IMG/VR virus record: IMGVR_UViG_3300045015_000053
Reading direction: 5' to 3' (one strand)
From: a virus
Taxonomy: Duplodnaviria > Caudoviricetes
DNA length: 64,000 nt
Under the pieces are notes generated by a model. It searched no databases and had not been told where the DNA came from. It was given only the letters and a program-made list of their open reading frames with translations. This document shows positions 4,726 to 58,059 of this stretch, piece by piece (the first letter of the stretch is position 1; every line of letters begins with the position of its first letter). The translations under genes were made by a program, and so were the position numbers.

Positions 4726-5964
4726 TCACATGTCGTCGTCTTCTTCCCACGGCATCTTTTCATGCTCGTCGTCTTCGTCGTCCGAGTCGTCGTCGTCTTC
4801 GTCATCGAGGTCGTCATCCCCGCTTTCATTGTCGTCATCTAGACCCAGATCGTCGCTGAAGTCGAGTTTGTGGTCGTCATCCCCGCCTTCATCTCCCATC
4901 CCGCCCTTGCCCGGAGGTGGCGGCGGGCTGTCTTCGTCCCCGCCGGCCATGTCGTCCATCTCCCCGCCGAGGTCCGGCTTCTCGCCGCTGTCTCCGAGGT
5001 CGTCGCCGCCCATGTCACCCTTGCCCGGTGGCGGTGGCGGCATGTCTTCGTCACCGCCTTCGCCCGGACCACCTTCATCATCCAGATCGAGGTTGTCTCC
5101 AACATCGCCGCCGTCTTCGTCCCCTTCGCCGTCGTCGTCTAGATCGAGGTCGTCCTCTTCGTCGCTGACTTTACGTTTCTCTTCTGACGGGTCAACGTCT
5201 TCGATGTCCATGCTGTCGTCGTGGGCCGGCTCGTCAACTTCTTCGCGGATCGCATGTTCGAGACGCCGCTGGAACGCTTCGCCCTTTTTGCTTTCGATGA
5301 TCTTGGCGAGAGCTTTGAAAGCCTCTGGGATCGTCAGCAAGTCGTTCACGAGAGCTTGAACCCCTCCGCTCCGGTTGATTTCGCGGACGAGGGCGTTACG
5401 CAAGTTGGCGTTCTCGTTGGCGAGGTACGCGACGTACCGAATCGCCTGAACCGGGTCCGGGTAGAACGCGCCGGCCGAGTGCGCAACGACGTGCGGTGCC
5501 TTTTTGCTCTTAACGTTCTCGGTCAGCCCCTTCTTGACGTGCTTGGCGAATTCGGCCGTCGTCATGCCTTTGGTGGCTTTGAGGAACGATTCGGTGGTCG
5601 TGGGACCGCCCTTCGGCCAACTTGCCACGGACTTTCCGCCGGACACGCCCTGTGTGGACTTGCTCACTCCGTTTTTGCCACCGTACCAGCCGTCACCCGG
5701 CTCGTACACGAGTCCTTTGTCGCCCATGTGTGCGAAGCCGCCCTTTTCAGCCTTCTTGGGGGCTTTGTCGGTGCCGCTCTTGTACGGCGCGGGCGTACCT
5801 TTGCTGCCGACGTTGGGGACTTCCCAATTCTTGCCTTTGGTCGAGCCTTTCTTGGGGCTTTTCTCTTTTGGGCCTTTGTAGTCTGGGGTCGCTTCGACTG
5901 GCGGTGCGGTGACGACTTTCCCTTTAGAGGAAAGGTACTCTTTGAATGTCTTGAACGATTTCAT
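4726..5964 (-). CDS. putative head-internal/prohead-core protein with long acidic D/E/G/P tail
   Basis: GGAGG RBS; starts MKSFKTFKEYL; TAAATA 57 nt upstream; two PPPPPGKG repeats. Confidence 0.65.
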   Translation of the reverse strand: MKSFKTFKEYLSSKGKVVTAPPVEATPDYKGPKEKSPKKGSTKGKNWEVPNVGSKGTPAPYKSGTDKAPKKAEKGGFAHMGDKGLVYEPGDGWYGGKNGVSKSTQGVSGGKSVASWPKGGPTTTESFLKATKGMTTAEFAKHVKKGLTENVKSKKAPHVVAHSAGAFYPDPVQAIRYVAYLANENANLRNALVREINRSGGVQALVNDLLTIPEAFKALAKIIESKKGEAFQRRLEHAIREEVDEPAHDDSMDIEDVDPSEEKRKVSDEEDDLDLDDDGEGDEDGGDVGDNLDLDDEGGPGEGGDEDMPPPPPGKGDMGGDDLGDSGEKPDLGGEMDDMAGGDEDSPPPPPGKGGMGDEGGDDDHKLDFSDDLGLDDDNESGDDDLDDEDDDDSDDEDDEHEKMPWEEDDDM

Positions 5965-5974
5965 GTTCCTCCGG

Positions 5975-6412
5975 TTATTGCAATGGCCGTGCGGCAGGAC
6001 CACTGCTCTGGCCGATGAGTGTATTTAGGAAGACTTCGACCAACTCGTCCAAAGTTGTTTGATTGGTCTTCAACTCGCTCAGTCTCTTCGCGATGTATGT
6101 GACGATGCTGATGTTGGCCGGCTGAACCGCCGCTTGGAAAATGGCGACCGCGATCTTCGGAACCAGATTCCGTTCTCGCGCGGCTTCGTAAATGGCTTCA
6201 TAGGCGGCGTCAAGGCGGTTCTTGTCCTTCGGCACCTTACTCAGTCTCTTGACGAGTTCTTGTGCCGCCCCCATCGCTTTGCTGCTGGCCGAGGGTGGGG
6301 AATACGGTTTTTCGCCCGTGCCGGACGCAACACGGTCCAGTCTGCGTTCACCGCGACTCGGCACCAGACCGGCGAGGGCTTCGGCCACCCATTCGGTGAA
6401 CTTCGTTTCCAT
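5975..6412 (-). CDS. hypothetical protein with CTS-like N-terminus
   Basis: METKFTEWVAEA; GGAG RBS. Confidence 0.65.
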   Translation of the reverse strand: METKFTEWVAEALAGLVPSRGERRLDRVASGTGEKPYSPPSASSKAMGAAQELVKRLSKVPKDKNRLDAAYEAIYEAARERNLVPKIAVAIFQAAVQPANISIVTYIAKRLSELKTNQTTLDELVEVFLNTLIGQSSGPAARPLQ

Positions 6413-52001: not shown

Positions 52002-52441
52002 GTCGCCGTCAAAGTGCCTACGAGATGCCGCCGCCCCCACCGCCCCCGCCTCTGGTGCCGATCAGAGGACGTTTCGACGCCGGTCGCGTGCCGGACTACT
52101 ACGCCGAGCGTGGGTGGTGCGAGGAATGGGCCGGTTGGAACAAGTTGACCGTCTGCACGCAGAAGTACCTGCGTGATCTGCTGCGGCAACTGTGGGAGAA
52201 CAAGAAACATCACGGGGAAAACCCGATTGTTTCGATCCACGTCAAGAACCCGTCCGGCAAGGGCAGTCGGATTCACGAGTGCTGCCGCGTGGACGGCTGG
52301 CAGACCGGGTTCGAGGCGGAATACAACCGCGAGATCGAATACTTCTGTGTGACCGAGACGGCGCTCTGCACGGACGGCAAAGACCACCAGTTCTGGCACA
52401 AGTTCAAAATCGAGGATGTCATCTGGGTGATGGTGACGTGA
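51998..52441 (+). CDS. hypothetical protein
   Basis: ATGA overlap. Confidence 0.6.
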   Translation: MSRRQSAYEMPPPPPPPPLVPIRGRFDAGRVPDYYAERGWCEEWAGWNKLTVCTQKYLRDLLRQLWENKKHHGENPIVSIHVKNPSGKGSRIHECCRVDGWQTGFEAEYNREIEYFCVTETALCTDGKDHQFWHKFKIEDVIWVMVT

Positions 52442-52443
52442 AT

Positions 52444-52474
52444 GAGAAGGCCGGGCAAAGCGCCCGGCCTTCTC
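52444..52474. terminator. hairpin between convergent genes
   Basis: GAGAAGGCCGGGC-aaagc-GCCCGGCCTTCTC. Confidence 0.8.
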
Positions 52475-52477
52475 TCT

Positions 52478-52690
52478 TTACTGCGATCTCGCACAGTCGG
52501 GACAGATCACGAGTTCCTTCACGATCTGTTTCCCGACCCCTCCGTTGTCGATGCACTCCATGTGATCGAACTTGCCGCGTTTGAATACGGGCTTGTACCG
52601 GGCGGGGTGGACTACTTCTTGGTAAAACGTGACCTTGTGCTGCTTCACCCTCGGTTGGGTGACGTTCCTGCAATTGGAGCAGACGTACAT
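52478..52690 (-). CDS. small zinc-ribbon protein
   Basis: MYVCSNC...CPDC; start chosen at an internal ATG. Confidence 0.5.
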   Translation of the reverse strand: MYVCSNCRNVTQPRVKQHKVTFYQEVVHPARYKPVFKRGKFDHMECIDNGGVGKQIVKELVICPDCARSQ

Positions 52691-52774
52691 TGTCTCGGCC
52701 GTTTTTGGATTGCCTTCTCGACAGGCCGAAGCCGGAAGGGTAAAGTGAGGTACACCGTATTGTGGGAGTTTCAA

Positions 52775-53008
52775 ATGGAAGATATGAGCAAACTCGAAAA
52801 ATTGCTGGACGTACCGATTGTCTTCGGGCTACAAGCTCAGGGACACATCCCCACGATCCAGAAGATGCTCGCGGCCGGCGCGACGTGGAAGGAGATCGGA
52901 AACAAGATCGGCTGGTGCCAAAACACCGCCAAAGAACACTACGAACGCTACCTTCAAAGGGAGAACGGCAATGCAAAGGGAAAGACACCCGCTGCCGATG
53001 GAGTCTGA
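52775..53008 (+). CDS. small HTH-like protein
   Basis: GGGAG RBS; GATWKEIGNKIGW. Confidence 0.5.
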   Translation: MEDMSKLEKLLDVPIVFGLQAQGHIPTIQKMLAAGATWKEIGNKIGWCQNTAKEHYERYLQRENGNAKGKTPAADGV

Positions 53009-53279
53009 CGAGATGGCCGAAGCCCTCCGGGTTTCGCATTGCGACCGCAAGAGGCAGAACCACAAGTGTCAGGGCGTCGTCACCATCGCCCCCGGCCAAC
53101 TGCGGCTCGACTGCAAACTGTGCGGCGAGGATCGGCACACGCTGGACGAGACGATGGTTCTGGTGCGAGAGGCCAGAGAGATCTGTGACATCGTCGGCGT
53201 GAACTACGACGCACTGGACGCTCAGAAGAGACGTGAATTGTTGTTGGCGGTACTGGATCTGGCTCAGAACGGCCTGTGA
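52971..53279 (+). CDS. Cys-containing hypothetical protein
   Basis: GGAG RBS. Confidence 0.55.
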   Translation: MQRERHPLPMESDEMAEALRVSHCDRKRQNHKCQGVVTIAPGQLRLDCKLCGEDRHTLDETMVLVREAREICDIVGVNYDALDAQKRRELLLAVLDLAQNGL

Positions 53280-53335
53280 CGCACTCAGTCCGGCAGATTC
53301 CACATTGCTGCTTCCTCTGCCGGACTGAGGGTTGT

Positions 53336-53761
53336 TCACTCGAAGTAGAAGTTGAAGTCGGCTCTCAACACGTTGATCTGCTTGTCGGCTTTGCCTTCGT
53401 CCAAAACAAACGTTCCCAAGATGAGCTTGCGTTCGCCTGCGGTCCTGTCTTCCATCTCTTTTTCGATTTGGAACAACTTCTCGATGATCTCGTTCAGATC
53501 CTGCCGCCACATGGTGTGGATTCTGCCTTTGAATGACATCCGCCATCGGTCAATCGATTGCAGGCTGAAGGAGATCATCGGCAGGTTGATCTTATCGACG
53601 CCCTTCTCGATGTCTTCGGCGACCAGTTCACGCGGGAGCAGCGAGGTCGATTTCTCTTCGCTGGCGTAAATCGTTTTGACTTGGTGTTCTTTGCCACTCT
53701 TGTCTCGTACCGTCACTTTTTGAAACAGCTTCATCAGTGCTTCTTCGTTCTCGCGGATCAT
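53336..53761 (-). CDS. hypothetical protein
   Basis: GAGG RBS. Confidence 0.6.
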   Translation of the reverse strand: MIRENEEALMKLFQKVTVRDKSGKEHQVKTIYASEEKSTSLLPRELVAEDIEKGVDKINLPMISFSLQSIDRWRMSFKGRIHTMWRQDLNEIIEKLFQIEKEMEDRTAGERKLILGTFVLDEGKADKQINVLRADFNFYFE

Positions 53762-53842
53762 TTTTCCTCGGTTGTTTGAACTCCTCGGTCGGCATCTACA
53801 TCTTAGTCACTTGTTTTCTTTTGGTTTGGGGTAGATACCGTT

Positions 53843-54724
53843 ATGCACGACCTCAAGTTCTCCGATTGGCTCAACGTCCAAGAAATGGCGCTCAGGAAAA
53901 TGGAACTGGTGCCGCCGCACAACCCGGACGATCCGAAATCCGCTTGGGGGCCAAAAGGCCGCAAGTACGGTTGGGACGACACCGACCGCAAGCTCGTCAC
54001 GTCCGAGGGCGGCGTGAAGAAATTCACGAAGCTGTTCGCGAACACCGAGTGGGACTTCGAGTTTTACCTCGTGCGGTCCAAAGAAGCCGCGAAGTGGGTC
54101 GAACACGGCGAAGTGACGACAGAGTGGGTTCACGATAACATCCCGCAGATGGCGACGTACCAACCGGCCGAAGACGCCATCAACGTGATCTTCACCAACA
54201 ACACCGGCGCGGAGAAGATGCACTTCTCGGCGTGGACCGCCGCTCACCGCTTGGGCCACGTCATCCAAAGGAGTCCGAACGTCGAGTATTGGAAGGAGTT
54301 CACGGCCGGTCTTCAAAGACAAATGGAAGGCATTCTGAGCCGCCACTACAACCACAAGGCCACCAGAGCTTTCTACGGCAGTAGTTTCCCAGACCAGAAG
54401 ACGGAGAAGTTGCTCGGCCGACTCGCGACGAACATGGGTACGATGCGGTCGGCTCGCCAAAACAACATCCGCAACTACTTCGAGTTCGCCTACGAACTCC
54501 TGGCCCAGTTCCTGACGACCAAGAACAAAGTTCAGTTCAACGGGCAGTTGGAGCGGATGCTCGCGACCAAGTTCGCGTGGGGCAAGCCGAGCGGCGGGGC
54601 GTACCAGAAGTACGACTCCGACAAAGAACAGATCGCGAGCGAGGTGGAGGACATCGCCGATTACTGTAACGAGTACCTCGAAGAAGTCATGCGAGAGTGC
54701 GTCGGCCGAACATTCGTGATGTAA
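53843..54724 (+). CDS. protein with CTS-like N-terminus and degenerate HxxxH (HRLGH)
   Basis: TAGATA 53832-53837 plus 5 nt; MHDLKFSDWLNVQEM. Confidence 0.7.
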   Translation: MHDLKFSDWLNVQEMALRKMELVPPHNPDDPKSAWGPKGRKYGWDDTDRKLVTSEGGVKKFTKLFANTEWDFEFYLVRSKEAAKWVEHGEVTTEWVHDNIPQMATYQPAEDAINVIFTNNTGAEKMHFSAWTAAHRLGHVIQRSPNVEYWKEFTAGLQRQMEGILSRHYNHKATRAFYGSSFPDQKTEKLLGRLATNMGTMRSARQNNIRNYFEFAYELLAQFLTTKNKVQFNGQLERMLATKFAWGKPSGGAYQKYDSDKEQIASEVEDIADYCNEYLEEVMRECVGRTFVM

Positions 54725-54729
54725 CACAA

Positions 54730-54760
54730 CGACCCAGGTGGCAATGATCCATCTGGGTCG
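54730..54760. terminator. bidirectional hairpin
   Basis: CGACCCAGGTGG/CCATCTGGGTCG. Confidence 0.7.
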
Positions 54761-54764
54761 CTGA

Positions 54765-55089
54765 ACTTTTGGGGTTATGATTGGTCCGGCTCGCTCTGTG
54801 GTGCAAACGCTAAACGGGCTTGAATCAGCCCTTTCACTCCCACAGGGAGCTATCCTTGACGACATGCCCTTCCTCTATGGCTCTGCCGGGCCAACGGGCC
54901 ACTTCCACCGCCTAGCGGTCTTAACTAGAGGTTCCGCAACATGACGTATTCTTCCGAGAGATTTCCAACCACTCGTATCCTTTTGCCCTCGGTTGCGATG
55001 TCGTCTTTCCGTCCATTTGGTTTTTCGGTCGAAACCTACTGGCCGTTAGAACGGTTTTGTCTCCTCGGACGCCGAAGCGTTTGAGGGTT
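54765..55089 (-). ncRNA. about 325-nt structured non-coding RNA (family unassigned)
   Basis: Minus-strand TAGATA at 55100-55095; UUCG hairpins; long-range helix 55005-54998/54865-54858 with nested helices; no ORF. Confidence 0.6.
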
Positions 55090-55097
55090 TGACTTAT

Positions 55098-55898
55098 CTA
55101 GGCACTCACCTCAATTGTTGGTTTCAGCCACTGTACAAAAAGGTGTGGGTTTTCTCGCACATACGCCGGCATCATTTCGAGCGACACCACCTTGTTGCGC
55201 GACTCGTCCAGCGGCATTTGGCGGTCGAACGGGTCTTTGCCGGCCTTCATCCGCTCGGCGATCTTGTCCACGTCCGTAAATTGCGGCAAGTCGAACTCGA
55301 CGTGCATGTACGATTCGATCTTCTTCTTCACCCGCTCCGCGCCTCCCATGAACCCGAAGTGCCAGCCCCCTTTGTCCATCGTCAACACCGGCGACTTGTG
55401 GCGGAACGTGTGCATGTCCCACCGCTGTTCGTAGATCAGCCCCATCCGGGCGATCCGCGTACCCATCCAGTTGCTGCCGATCCGCAGGTTCAAGTAGTAT
55501 TGGTAGATCTCCTGCTTGAAGGCGATGTCGCCGCGATGAAGGTAGTCCACCGCTTTTTTGACGACTGCCGCGTTGGGGATCTCGTCAACGTCCGACATCA
55601 TCACGGTGTCTTCCGGCTTGGCCCCTATCTGCAACAGCCCCTGCCACGCCATCTGCCGCTGGAACTGTTCGCGTGCGTGTGGCTCGCCTTTGGGCAACTG
55701 CGTCTTGATCACCGCAAGCTTGCGACCCCACTTGGCAAAGAACTCGCGCCGCTCATTGAACAGGAACGGCTTCGGCTTCCCCGAATGGGTACTGTCGGCT
55801 TCGACCAACACGAACTTGTCAACGACCGGGTCCAGTTCGTTGAGCCGGATCGTCAGTAGCTCGAACTCGTTGAAGAATGGGAAGCAGTCGTAGATCAT
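55098..55898 (-). CDS. GT17 (MGAT3-like) glycosyltransferase
   Basis: IYDCFPFFNEFELL.IRL.EL..VVD.FVLVE...THSG, SDVDEIP, GGWHFGFMGG. Confidence 0.88.
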   Translation of the reverse strand: MIYDCFPFFNEFELLTIRLNELDPVVDKFVLVEADSTHSGKPKPFLFNERREFFAKWGRKLAVIKTQLPKGEPHAREQFQRQMAWQGLLQIGAKPEDTVMMSDVDEIPNAAVVKKAVDYLHRGDIAFKQEIYQYYLNLRIGSNWMGTRIARMGLIYEQRWDMHTFRHKSPVLTMDKGGWHFGFMGGAERVKKKIESYMHVEFDLPQFTDVDKIAERMKAGKDPFDRQMPLDESRNKVVSLEMMPAYVRENPHLFVQWLKPTIEVSA

Positions 55899-57988: not shown

Positions 57989-58059
57989 TGCGGAGTGGAG
58001 GAGAGGTTCCTTGTGAGGCTCATAACCTCAAGACGCTGGTTCGAGTCCAGCCTCCGTAA
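57989..58059 (+). tRNA. tRNA-Met(CAT), initiator-like, copy 1
   Basis: TGAGG-CTCATAA-CCTCA; GCTGG-TTCGAGT-CCAGC; U1-A72. Confidence 0.85.

Follow-up and report, generated by a model that had tools for sequence, protein, structure and literature searches.

An uncatalogued structured RNA, very probably a gene of its own, behind the glycosyltransferase genes of very large phages

What occupies a gap of 373 nucleotides (nt) between two convergent genes of a very large phage, where no protein appears to be encoded? The gap lies in a 64,000-nt stretch of DNA (hereafter the window) from the IMG/VR record IMGVR_UViG_3300045015_000053, a 188-kb phage contig with an estimated completeness of 37%. One flank is the final member of a set of three glycosyltransferase genes, a minus-strand gene of family 17 (GT17; 55098-55898; Pfam E = 1.6e-26), and the other is a plus-strand gene for a protein of 293 amino acids (aa; 53843-54724). 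A first-pass annotation, made from the letters of the window, had described the gap as free of open reading frames (ORFs) from a promoter-like box to a hairpin, and as the site of a discrete, structured minus-strand RNA. Both statements are upheld here: there is no credible ORF between box and hairpin, and comparison with homologues supports a unit that runs from 54723 to 55090 on the minus strand, with the whole predicted RNA measuring ~365-368 nt from the presumed start to the last base of a U-rich tail. We consider it highly probable that this unit is a real, independently promoted gene for a structured noncoding RNA (ncRNA), and it represents an uncatalogued RNA family, found in a single clade of very large phages of lakes and other waters.

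Conservation and secondary structure of the RNA

Relatives of the locus were reached through searches with the flanking proteins and not through a direct DNA search; the GT17 protein returned relatives at 70-75% and at 47-52% identity, and the 293-aa protein returned relatives at 58-84% identity. An RNA homologue was found in 10 distinct metagenomic sequences, the window counted. Eight copies are full length (the window, L101, L102, L103, L104, L136, which is identical to L137, L139, and L140), two are partial and cut at a contig end (L106 and L108), and together they fall into two clades, one close to the window and one far from it. The block conserved across the 10 sequences starts at the box and stops at the terminator, and directly 5′ of it, on the same strand, there is always a glycosyltransferase gene, which belongs to GT17 in eight sequences (again counting the window) and is of the GT2 type in L139 and L140. 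The RNA is conserved better than the adjoining protein genes and evolves more slowly. In the close clade, its nucleotide identity to the window is 89-90%, compared to 72-77% for the GT17 gene and 82% for the 293-aa gene, and in the far clade it is 70-71%, compared to 62-72% for these two genes; several stretches of ~25-31 nt within the RNA are almost invariant.

Wider searches place the RNA in these sequences only within the following scope. Neither megablast nor blastn matched the locus to any of 50,697 phage records, and scans of viral contigs with the 293-aa protein, with a spurious 375-aa ORF of the window, and with DNA polymerase III alpha gave no relatives, while GT17 recovered only distant ones there (≤41% identity over the full domain). 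Among metagenome contigs, GT17 retrieved 77 loci, all at ≤45% identity over the full domain, and the RNA was in none of them by nhmmer or by a covariance model, the latter representing the central domain of the RNA only. The same was true next to GT17 relatives at 49-51% identity in other contexts (L105 and L107), on a 268-kb contig (G001) that shares only five distant proteins, and in a covariance-model search of 95 other loci totaling 637 kb. The invariant motif ATACGAGTGG-N0-6-AATCTCTCG occurred in 11 viral and 16 genome stretches, all of them chance or unrelated sequence, and in a homologous context it occurred in no bacterial genome among 185,579 species; a pattern scan with a second motif, taken from the 3′ domain, gave none. 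A paralogue was not found in the 188-kb contig either, where the RNA profile matches only itself.

The structure was evaluated by counting base pairs on three sub-alignments, with slid partners and 500 shuffles as controls; the alignment of the 5′ domain holds 10 sequences, and that of the central domain was fitted to its structure model. In the 5′ domain, 91.5% of cells (one pair in one sequence) pair compared to 23-45% when partners are slid, with seven pair changes on both sides compared to 0-2. The central domain gave 92% compared to 36-46%, and nine double-sided changes compared to 0-3, counts that include one helix (H6, below) scored out of register, and the 3′ domain gave 94.6% compared to 30-46%, with six double-sided changes. 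Over all three domains, 22 pairs are altered on both sides; the count of double-sided changes was reached by at most 3 of the 500 shuffles, and the paired share and the covariation score by none. Covariation among homologues, a check that the first-pass annotation had proposed, thus reveals a conserved structure (91-95% of cells paired compared to 23-46% slid). The support rests on this comparison of homologues, since the single-sequence fold score is modest and practically equal on both strands (z-score of −2.3 for the minus strand and −2.4 for the plus strand).

The 5′ domain begins with the hairpin H1, CCUC-AA-ACGC-UUCG-GCGU-CC-GAGG (55063-55086; this and all following helices are on the minus strand), in which 97% of cells pair and one G-C to A-U change is compensatory, in keeping with the ACGC-UUCG-GCGU hairpin predicted earlier. 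It is followed by the H2 domain (55009-55054), where CCGUUC/GGACGG encloses an inner 4-bp helix, clear in the second clade only, and a GGU-UUCG-ACC hairpin (55027-55036). All H2 cells pair (100%), with two double-sided changes (U-A, C-G, A-U; C-G, U-A), and the UUCG hairpin, likewise predicted beforehand, is retained while its closing pair varies among G-C, A-U, G-U, C-G, and U-A.

The central domain is closed by a long-range helix, H3, in which the 5′ arm GACGACAU (54998-55005) pairs with the 3′ arm AUGUCGUC (54858-54865), the latter lying within a nearly invariant stretch of ~26 nt, GAAGGGCAUGUCGUCAAGGAUAGCU. This 8-bp helix had been proposed from the window: 98% of cells pair, but no compensatory change is seen, and because the changes are one-sided and wobble-compatible only, with one A-C mismatch, H3 is consistent with the alignment and not proven by it. 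Inside it, H4 (CGCAAC at 54992-54997 with GUUGCG at 54935-54940) and its enclosed subdomain extend over 54935-54997; three of the six H4 pairs are altered on both sides, and in L106 an extension of the stem is deleted on both sides together. At 54952-54982 lies an almost invariant 31-nt block, AAGGAUACGAGUGGUYGGRAAUCUCUCGGAA, which bears H5, a CGAG/CUCG hairpin whose four pairs never vary. The block is near-identical in nine of the 10 sequences; in L106, five loop bases and the leading AAGG are missing and the final GGAA is altered. H6 (CCUCUA at 54926-54931 with UAGAGG at 54872-54877) bounds a junction (54872-54931) that contains H7 (54907-54919) and H8 (54889-54900). It forms six of six pairs in both clades, with the register of one clade shifted by a base relative to that of the other, and both of its ends have changed (C-G to U-A and A-U to G-C), so that the two helices that had been placed within H3, namely H4 and H6, both hold. 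In H7 all five pairs are altered on both sides, and H8 consists of two fixed G-C pairs plus variable pairs.

The 3′ domain (54789-54850) is formed by a second long-range helix of 11-12 bp, GCUCC-CUGUGG (54840-54850) with CCACAG-AGCGAGC (54789-54801), in which 97.8% of cells pair and four changes are double-sided. It encloses the hairpin GGGCU/AGCCC (54816-54831), which was predicted in the first pass and which has two pairs altered on both sides. The local helix GCUCCC/GGGAGU, predicted alongside it, is the only one of the first-pass helices that fared less well: it can form, but its 5′ arm pairs better with the downstream CCACAG-AGCGAGC, and we prefer the long-range helix because it shows four compensatory pairs compared to one-sided changes only in the local one. 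A switch between the two pairings is possible. Two further candidates were rejected, namely an RNAalifold alternative that pairs CCGAGGRGA with UCUCUCGG and is broken in L106, L139, and L140, and a pairing of GUUGCG with GGCAG inside H6, which is compatible with the data yet crosses two covarying helices. Sequences of the second clade carry an extra hairpin of ~37 nt, GUCCGAUACCGCCGG...CCGGUAGGUCGGAC, within the single-stranded tail that links the 3′ domain to the terminator (L104, 5110-5165; L136, 8320-8375).

As far as can be judged from sequence features, the RNA is on the minus strand, as indicated by its two UUCG loops, the U-rich tails, the promoter-like box, the orientation of the operon in all relatives, and an excess of G-U over A-C cells (25 vs 14 when read as the minus strand). 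The unit is noncoding, with no conserved reading frame: the longest open frames among the homologues are 27-98 codons long and lie in differing frames, and 1-nt insertions or deletions are frequent.

Promoter-like box, terminator, and transcription

The box is TAGATA at 55095-55100 on the minus strand, −10-like and of a TAnATA class; in this genome the TAG doubles as the stop codon of GT17, precisely as had been noted in the first pass. The relatives carry TAGATA, TACATA, or TAAATA, with T1, A2, A4, and T5 invariant in all 10 sequences and G, C, or A at position 3, and a spacing of 7-8 nt separates the box from the first helix. It is not conserved as a stop codon, because the glycosyltransferase stop lies elsewhere in most relatives, at 5-20 nt before the box. 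The proposal that a promoter motif precedes the RNA is therefore supported by a conserved promoter-like box in all 10 homologues. The window holds five exact copies of TAGATA, no enrichment over the 3.4 expected; the wider TAnATA class is clearly nonrandom. Of the 80 copies of TAnATA genome-wide, 28 (35%) precede the start codon (ATG or GTG) of an ORF with at least 50 codons at a distance of 3-8 nt, in most cases 4-5 nt, compared to mostly 5-15% for control hexamers and 18% for the related TAnAAT. Because more than a third of its copies precede starts at this distance, TAnATA fits a −10-like box for a genome-wide class of leaderless mRNAs, a result that supports such a promoter class and aids gene calling. 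Examples in the window are found at 2221, 13451, 20558, 22995, 34904, 36859, 47965, and 53832. The genes behind TAnATA boxes include matches to a head maturation protease and to an endonuclease VII-like family, and we take the box to resemble the T4 late box, TATAAATA; the motif suggests late expression of the genes that carry it, the RNA included. With the 5′ end of the RNA set by the box-to-ATG spacing at leaderless genes, transcription would start 5-6 nt after the box, at ~55089-55090, the same spacing as at leaderless mRNAs.

At the other end, a predicted intrinsic terminator (54723-54759, minus strand) consists of an 11-bp stem (54759-54749/54741-54731), the loop AUCAUUG, and the tail GUUGUGUU (54730-54723), which runs directly up to the stop codon of the convergently oriented 293-aa gene. 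A hairpin is present at this place in all eight full-length copies, with a U-rich tail in the copies checked; the stem covaries at at least seven positions, and the loop is identical in seven of the eight copies. L140 has an unrelated hairpin at the terminator position, with a weak U tail. The hairpin terminator that had been thought to end the stretch is thus borne out, with a covarying stem. On the plus strand, the terminator hairpin is followed by CTGAACTTTTGGGG, and it may work in both directions. A second plus-strand site, at 55062-55087, where the complement of H1 is followed by TTTGACTTAT, scores as terminator-like and might stop antisense transcription into the GT17 gene.

A single search of sequencing runs located the exact locus in DNA runs from lake water, and three RNA libraries, each from a different study, contained small shares of it. 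DNA runs from groundwater, drinking water, and sediment also had small shares, which give no indication of habitat. Compared at ≥80% likeness, the RNA libraries contributed 1-2 contigs each, 151-233 nt long and 90-95% identical to the window, all within 54779-55061 and none on the flanks; the uncovered parts of the stretch in these runs are no evidence of silence. The differences from the window agree with the structure model. The four run rows, among which is a probable DNA library, list 33 in total: 26 are outside the listed helices, at places where the homologues also vary, three keep the pair by wobble, and four strike the same weak closing pair of H8. We regard these contigs as a weak hint of transcription.

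Could the element instead be a structured 3′ untranslated region (UTR) of the glycosyltransferase operon, made by read-through only, with a role in cis (e.g., blocking a 3′ exonuclease) or as the source of a processed 3′-UTR-derived RNA? Its position directly behind a same-strand glycosyltransferase gene in all 10 sequences, with no terminator in between, is what such an element would have. We nevertheless consider this rather unlikely, as the TAnATA box is conserved at a fixed spacing to helix 1 and independently of the stop codon, a conserved multi-domain fold of ~330 nt far exceeds the needs of a 3′ stabilizer, and the RNA is retained behind a different glycosyltransferase family.

Several points weigh against a real, independently promoted gene for a structured RNA. 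The upstream gene and the RNA are not separated by a terminator, and hence the RNA may arise mainly as the 3′ end of the operon. Compensatory changes are absent from H3 and H5. The comparison comprises eight full and two partial sequences from two clades only, such that many of the double changes are shared by descent, and fitting the central-domain alignment to the structure model favors that model. Finally, the RNA-library contigs, being short and of low depth, cannot show ends, strand, or level, and because they were found via the conserved core at low depth, carry-over of DNA is possible. Even with these points, a real ncRNA gene with its own promoter is, in our judgment, very probably the correct reading of the locus.

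Known RNAs and possible roles

Which kind of RNA might this be? Rfam 15, whose coverage includes RNase P, transfer-messenger RNA (tmRNA), signal recognition particle (SRP) RNA, 6S, group I/II introns, ROOL, GOLLD, pRNA, and self-cleaving ribozymes, returned no gathering-score match for the window region, where the sole hit at E ≤ 10 is 24 nt long, on the opposite strand, and due to chance, and nothing at E ≤ 10 at the position of the RNA in L103, L104, L139, and L140. The Rfam search suggested in the first-pass annotation thus finds no family match in five homologues, and its remark that the RNA could not be matched to RNase P or group I/II cores is borne out at the same threshold: it is neither RNase P nor a group I/II intron. 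Bacterial RNase P RNA is similar in length and likewise has a multi-domain fold and long-range helices, and the purine-rich conserved strands GAGGAAGGGC and GUGAAAGGGC presumably recall, if faintly, conserved regions of RNase P; in contrast to it, the window RNA has no helix closing its 5′ and 3′ ends, has a terminator hairpin of its own, and is matched by no RNase P model at E ≤ 10 in the five homologues. The phi29 prohead RNA is also a phage-encoded structured RNA, yet it differs in size and fold, gave no Rfam match, and no packaging genes were seen beside the window RNA, nor any feature that ties it to proheads. The roles raised in the first pass (virion assembly or packaging, ribozyme, protein sponge) gained no support from the analysis.

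The closest known things are ROOL and GOLLD, large ornate RNAs of phages and prophages (PMC12286853). Like these, the window RNA is phage-encoded, heavily structured, supported by covariation, and near tRNA islands. Unlike them, it has a fixed place behind a glycosyltransferase operon, at the 3′ end, and, at ~365 nt, is about half their size, short of the ~550 nt that, with many pseudoknots and homo-oligomers, marks RNAs of that type; neither Rfam model matched, and no palindromic loop suggesting self-assembly of the ROOL/GOLLD type was seen.

We tentatively propose a trans-acting role for the RNA, in the form of a stable, folded particle, a mechanism that we hold to be possible and that we rate well below the existence of the gene itself. 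The RNA would be expressed together with the TAnATA gene class, probably late, and read-through of the glycosyltransferase operon would also carry it. Its invariant unpaired stretches, namely GGAAG, GGGAGUGAAA, UAGCGUU, the hairpin block CGAG...CUCG, and the pair of AAGGAUA strands at junctions, would then be where a protein partner binds or where RNA touches RNA, in tertiary or oligomer contacts, rather than sites of antisense pairing. A reverse-complement search of the 188-kb contig for antisense targets gave two 13-mers and ten 12-mers, about what chance would give. To our knowledge, strongly conserved structured RNAs longer than 300 nt are uncommon, and the ones examined so far proved to be ribozymes, ribonucleoprotein cores, or self-assembling cages. 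We give little credence to the more specific idea that the RNA works together with the glycan module, whether as a scaffold or cofactor that guides the glycosyltransferases to their target, as a substrate that becomes glycosylated, or as a late self-assembling particle similar to the ROOL/GOLLD cages but of a new, smaller architecture. Its fixed position behind the glycosyltransferase genes is still a concrete starting point for studies of function. Slow evolution, the promoter-to-terminator layout, and occurrence in lake assemblies make this a tractable RNA, and the clear layout makes in vitro transcription, structure probing, and cryo-electron microscopy feasible.

A role as a sponge, one of those raised in the first pass, appears quite improbable. 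In such a role, of the CsrB/RsmZ type or as a Shine-Dalgarno mimic, GGA and AAGGA stretches would soak up a host regulator or 30S subunits and so favor the leaderless mRNAs of the phage. The phage does have many leaderless-type starts, the two invariant AAGGAUA strands are ones that we take to resemble the CsrA consensus, and there are 13 GGA triplets in 379 nt. This number, however, is only modestly above a rough composition-based estimate of ~8, the triplets are mostly in helices or junctions instead of hairpin loops, and there are no repeated hairpin units, so that the repeated, loop-displayed GGA of a sponge RNA was not found; nor was a CsrA gene found in the 188-kb contig, which covers ~37% of the genome.

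What lies downstream bears on yet another possibility, that of a cis-regulatory leader, riboswitch-like or a processive antiterminator similar to the eps-associated RNA (EAR), for glycan genes that follow. A same-strand MurB-like gene does follow the RNA in L104 and L136/L137, with a pyruvyl-transferase gene next in L136/L137, and structured RNAs tied to sugar or exopolysaccharide genes, namely wcaG, manA, and epsC (EAR), exist in phages and bacteria, some of them in T4-like cyanophages (PMC2864571). These motifs, however, are short cis-acting 5′ leaders, whereas the window RNA is at least three times longer, lies 3′ of genes, carries a terminator of its own, and in many cases has nothing following it, and their Rfam families were not matched. 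The 293-aa gene follows convergently in the window, L102, L103, and L139, and in L140 the convergent gene comes after an intervening uncalled ORF; among the seven distinct sequences in which the next conserved gene is visible, it is therefore convergent in five, leaving nothing downstream for a leader to regulate. As no conspicuous competitor of the terminator stem was seen either, we judge a leader very improbable. The idea that conservation acts on the DNA (as a packaging, replication, or recombination site) or reflects a decayed gene, with an incidental fold, can scarcely be credited: a single-sequence z-score that is modest and equal on both strands would suit it, but it conflicts with the 22 double-sided changes, with pairs kept through G-U, which is RNA-specific on the minus strand, and with a conserved box and terminators in the absence of any conserved frame.

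Neighboring genes and further observations

The gene convergent to the RNA has 36 homologues and the AT skew expected of a plus-strand gene. For these two reasons, a 352-codon minus-strand ORF (53807-54865) that overlaps it was rejected as a gene and regarded as its antisense shadow. Along with a second minus-strand ORF of 375 codons (52419-53546), it has no relatives or family matches and runs against the local AT skew, and both are probably shadows of plus-strand genes. The 293-aa gene is near the RNA in the window, L102, L103, L136/L137, L139, and L140, i.e., on every contig that reaches far enough; the L104 contig ends before the gene could appear. Across its 36 homologues, the 293-aa protein has invariant H135, R136, H139, S203, R205, R210, E214, and E218. 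Its AlphaFold model is confident (pLDDT of 89.3) and matched no solved fold (best Foldseek E-value of 0.4 and best VIA-align Z of 4.5), and a few zinc peptidases align with it over most of its length at Z of 3.1-3.7.

In L140, a 586-kb contig, the uncalled ORF between the RNA terminator and the convergent gene (5920-6330, minus strand) has Cys-X-X-Cys pairs and the look of an HNH endonuclease, with TACATAAATA before it; its translated stretch gave no Pfam match. More generally, these phages encode EF-Tu, tmRNA, and many tRNAs. The 188-kb contig contains a tmRNA and 18 tRNA matches, and its tRNA array begins at 57989, ~3 kb from the RNA and past the glycosyltransferase genes; tRNAs are also close to the RNA unit in L103, L104, L139, and L140. 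Finally, the RNA libraries that contain relatives of the RNA core (X14, X20, and X24) are labelled soil, freshwater, and "metagenome", and since such relatives occur in soil and freshwater RNA libraries, the phage clade may extend, and may even be widespread, beyond lakes.

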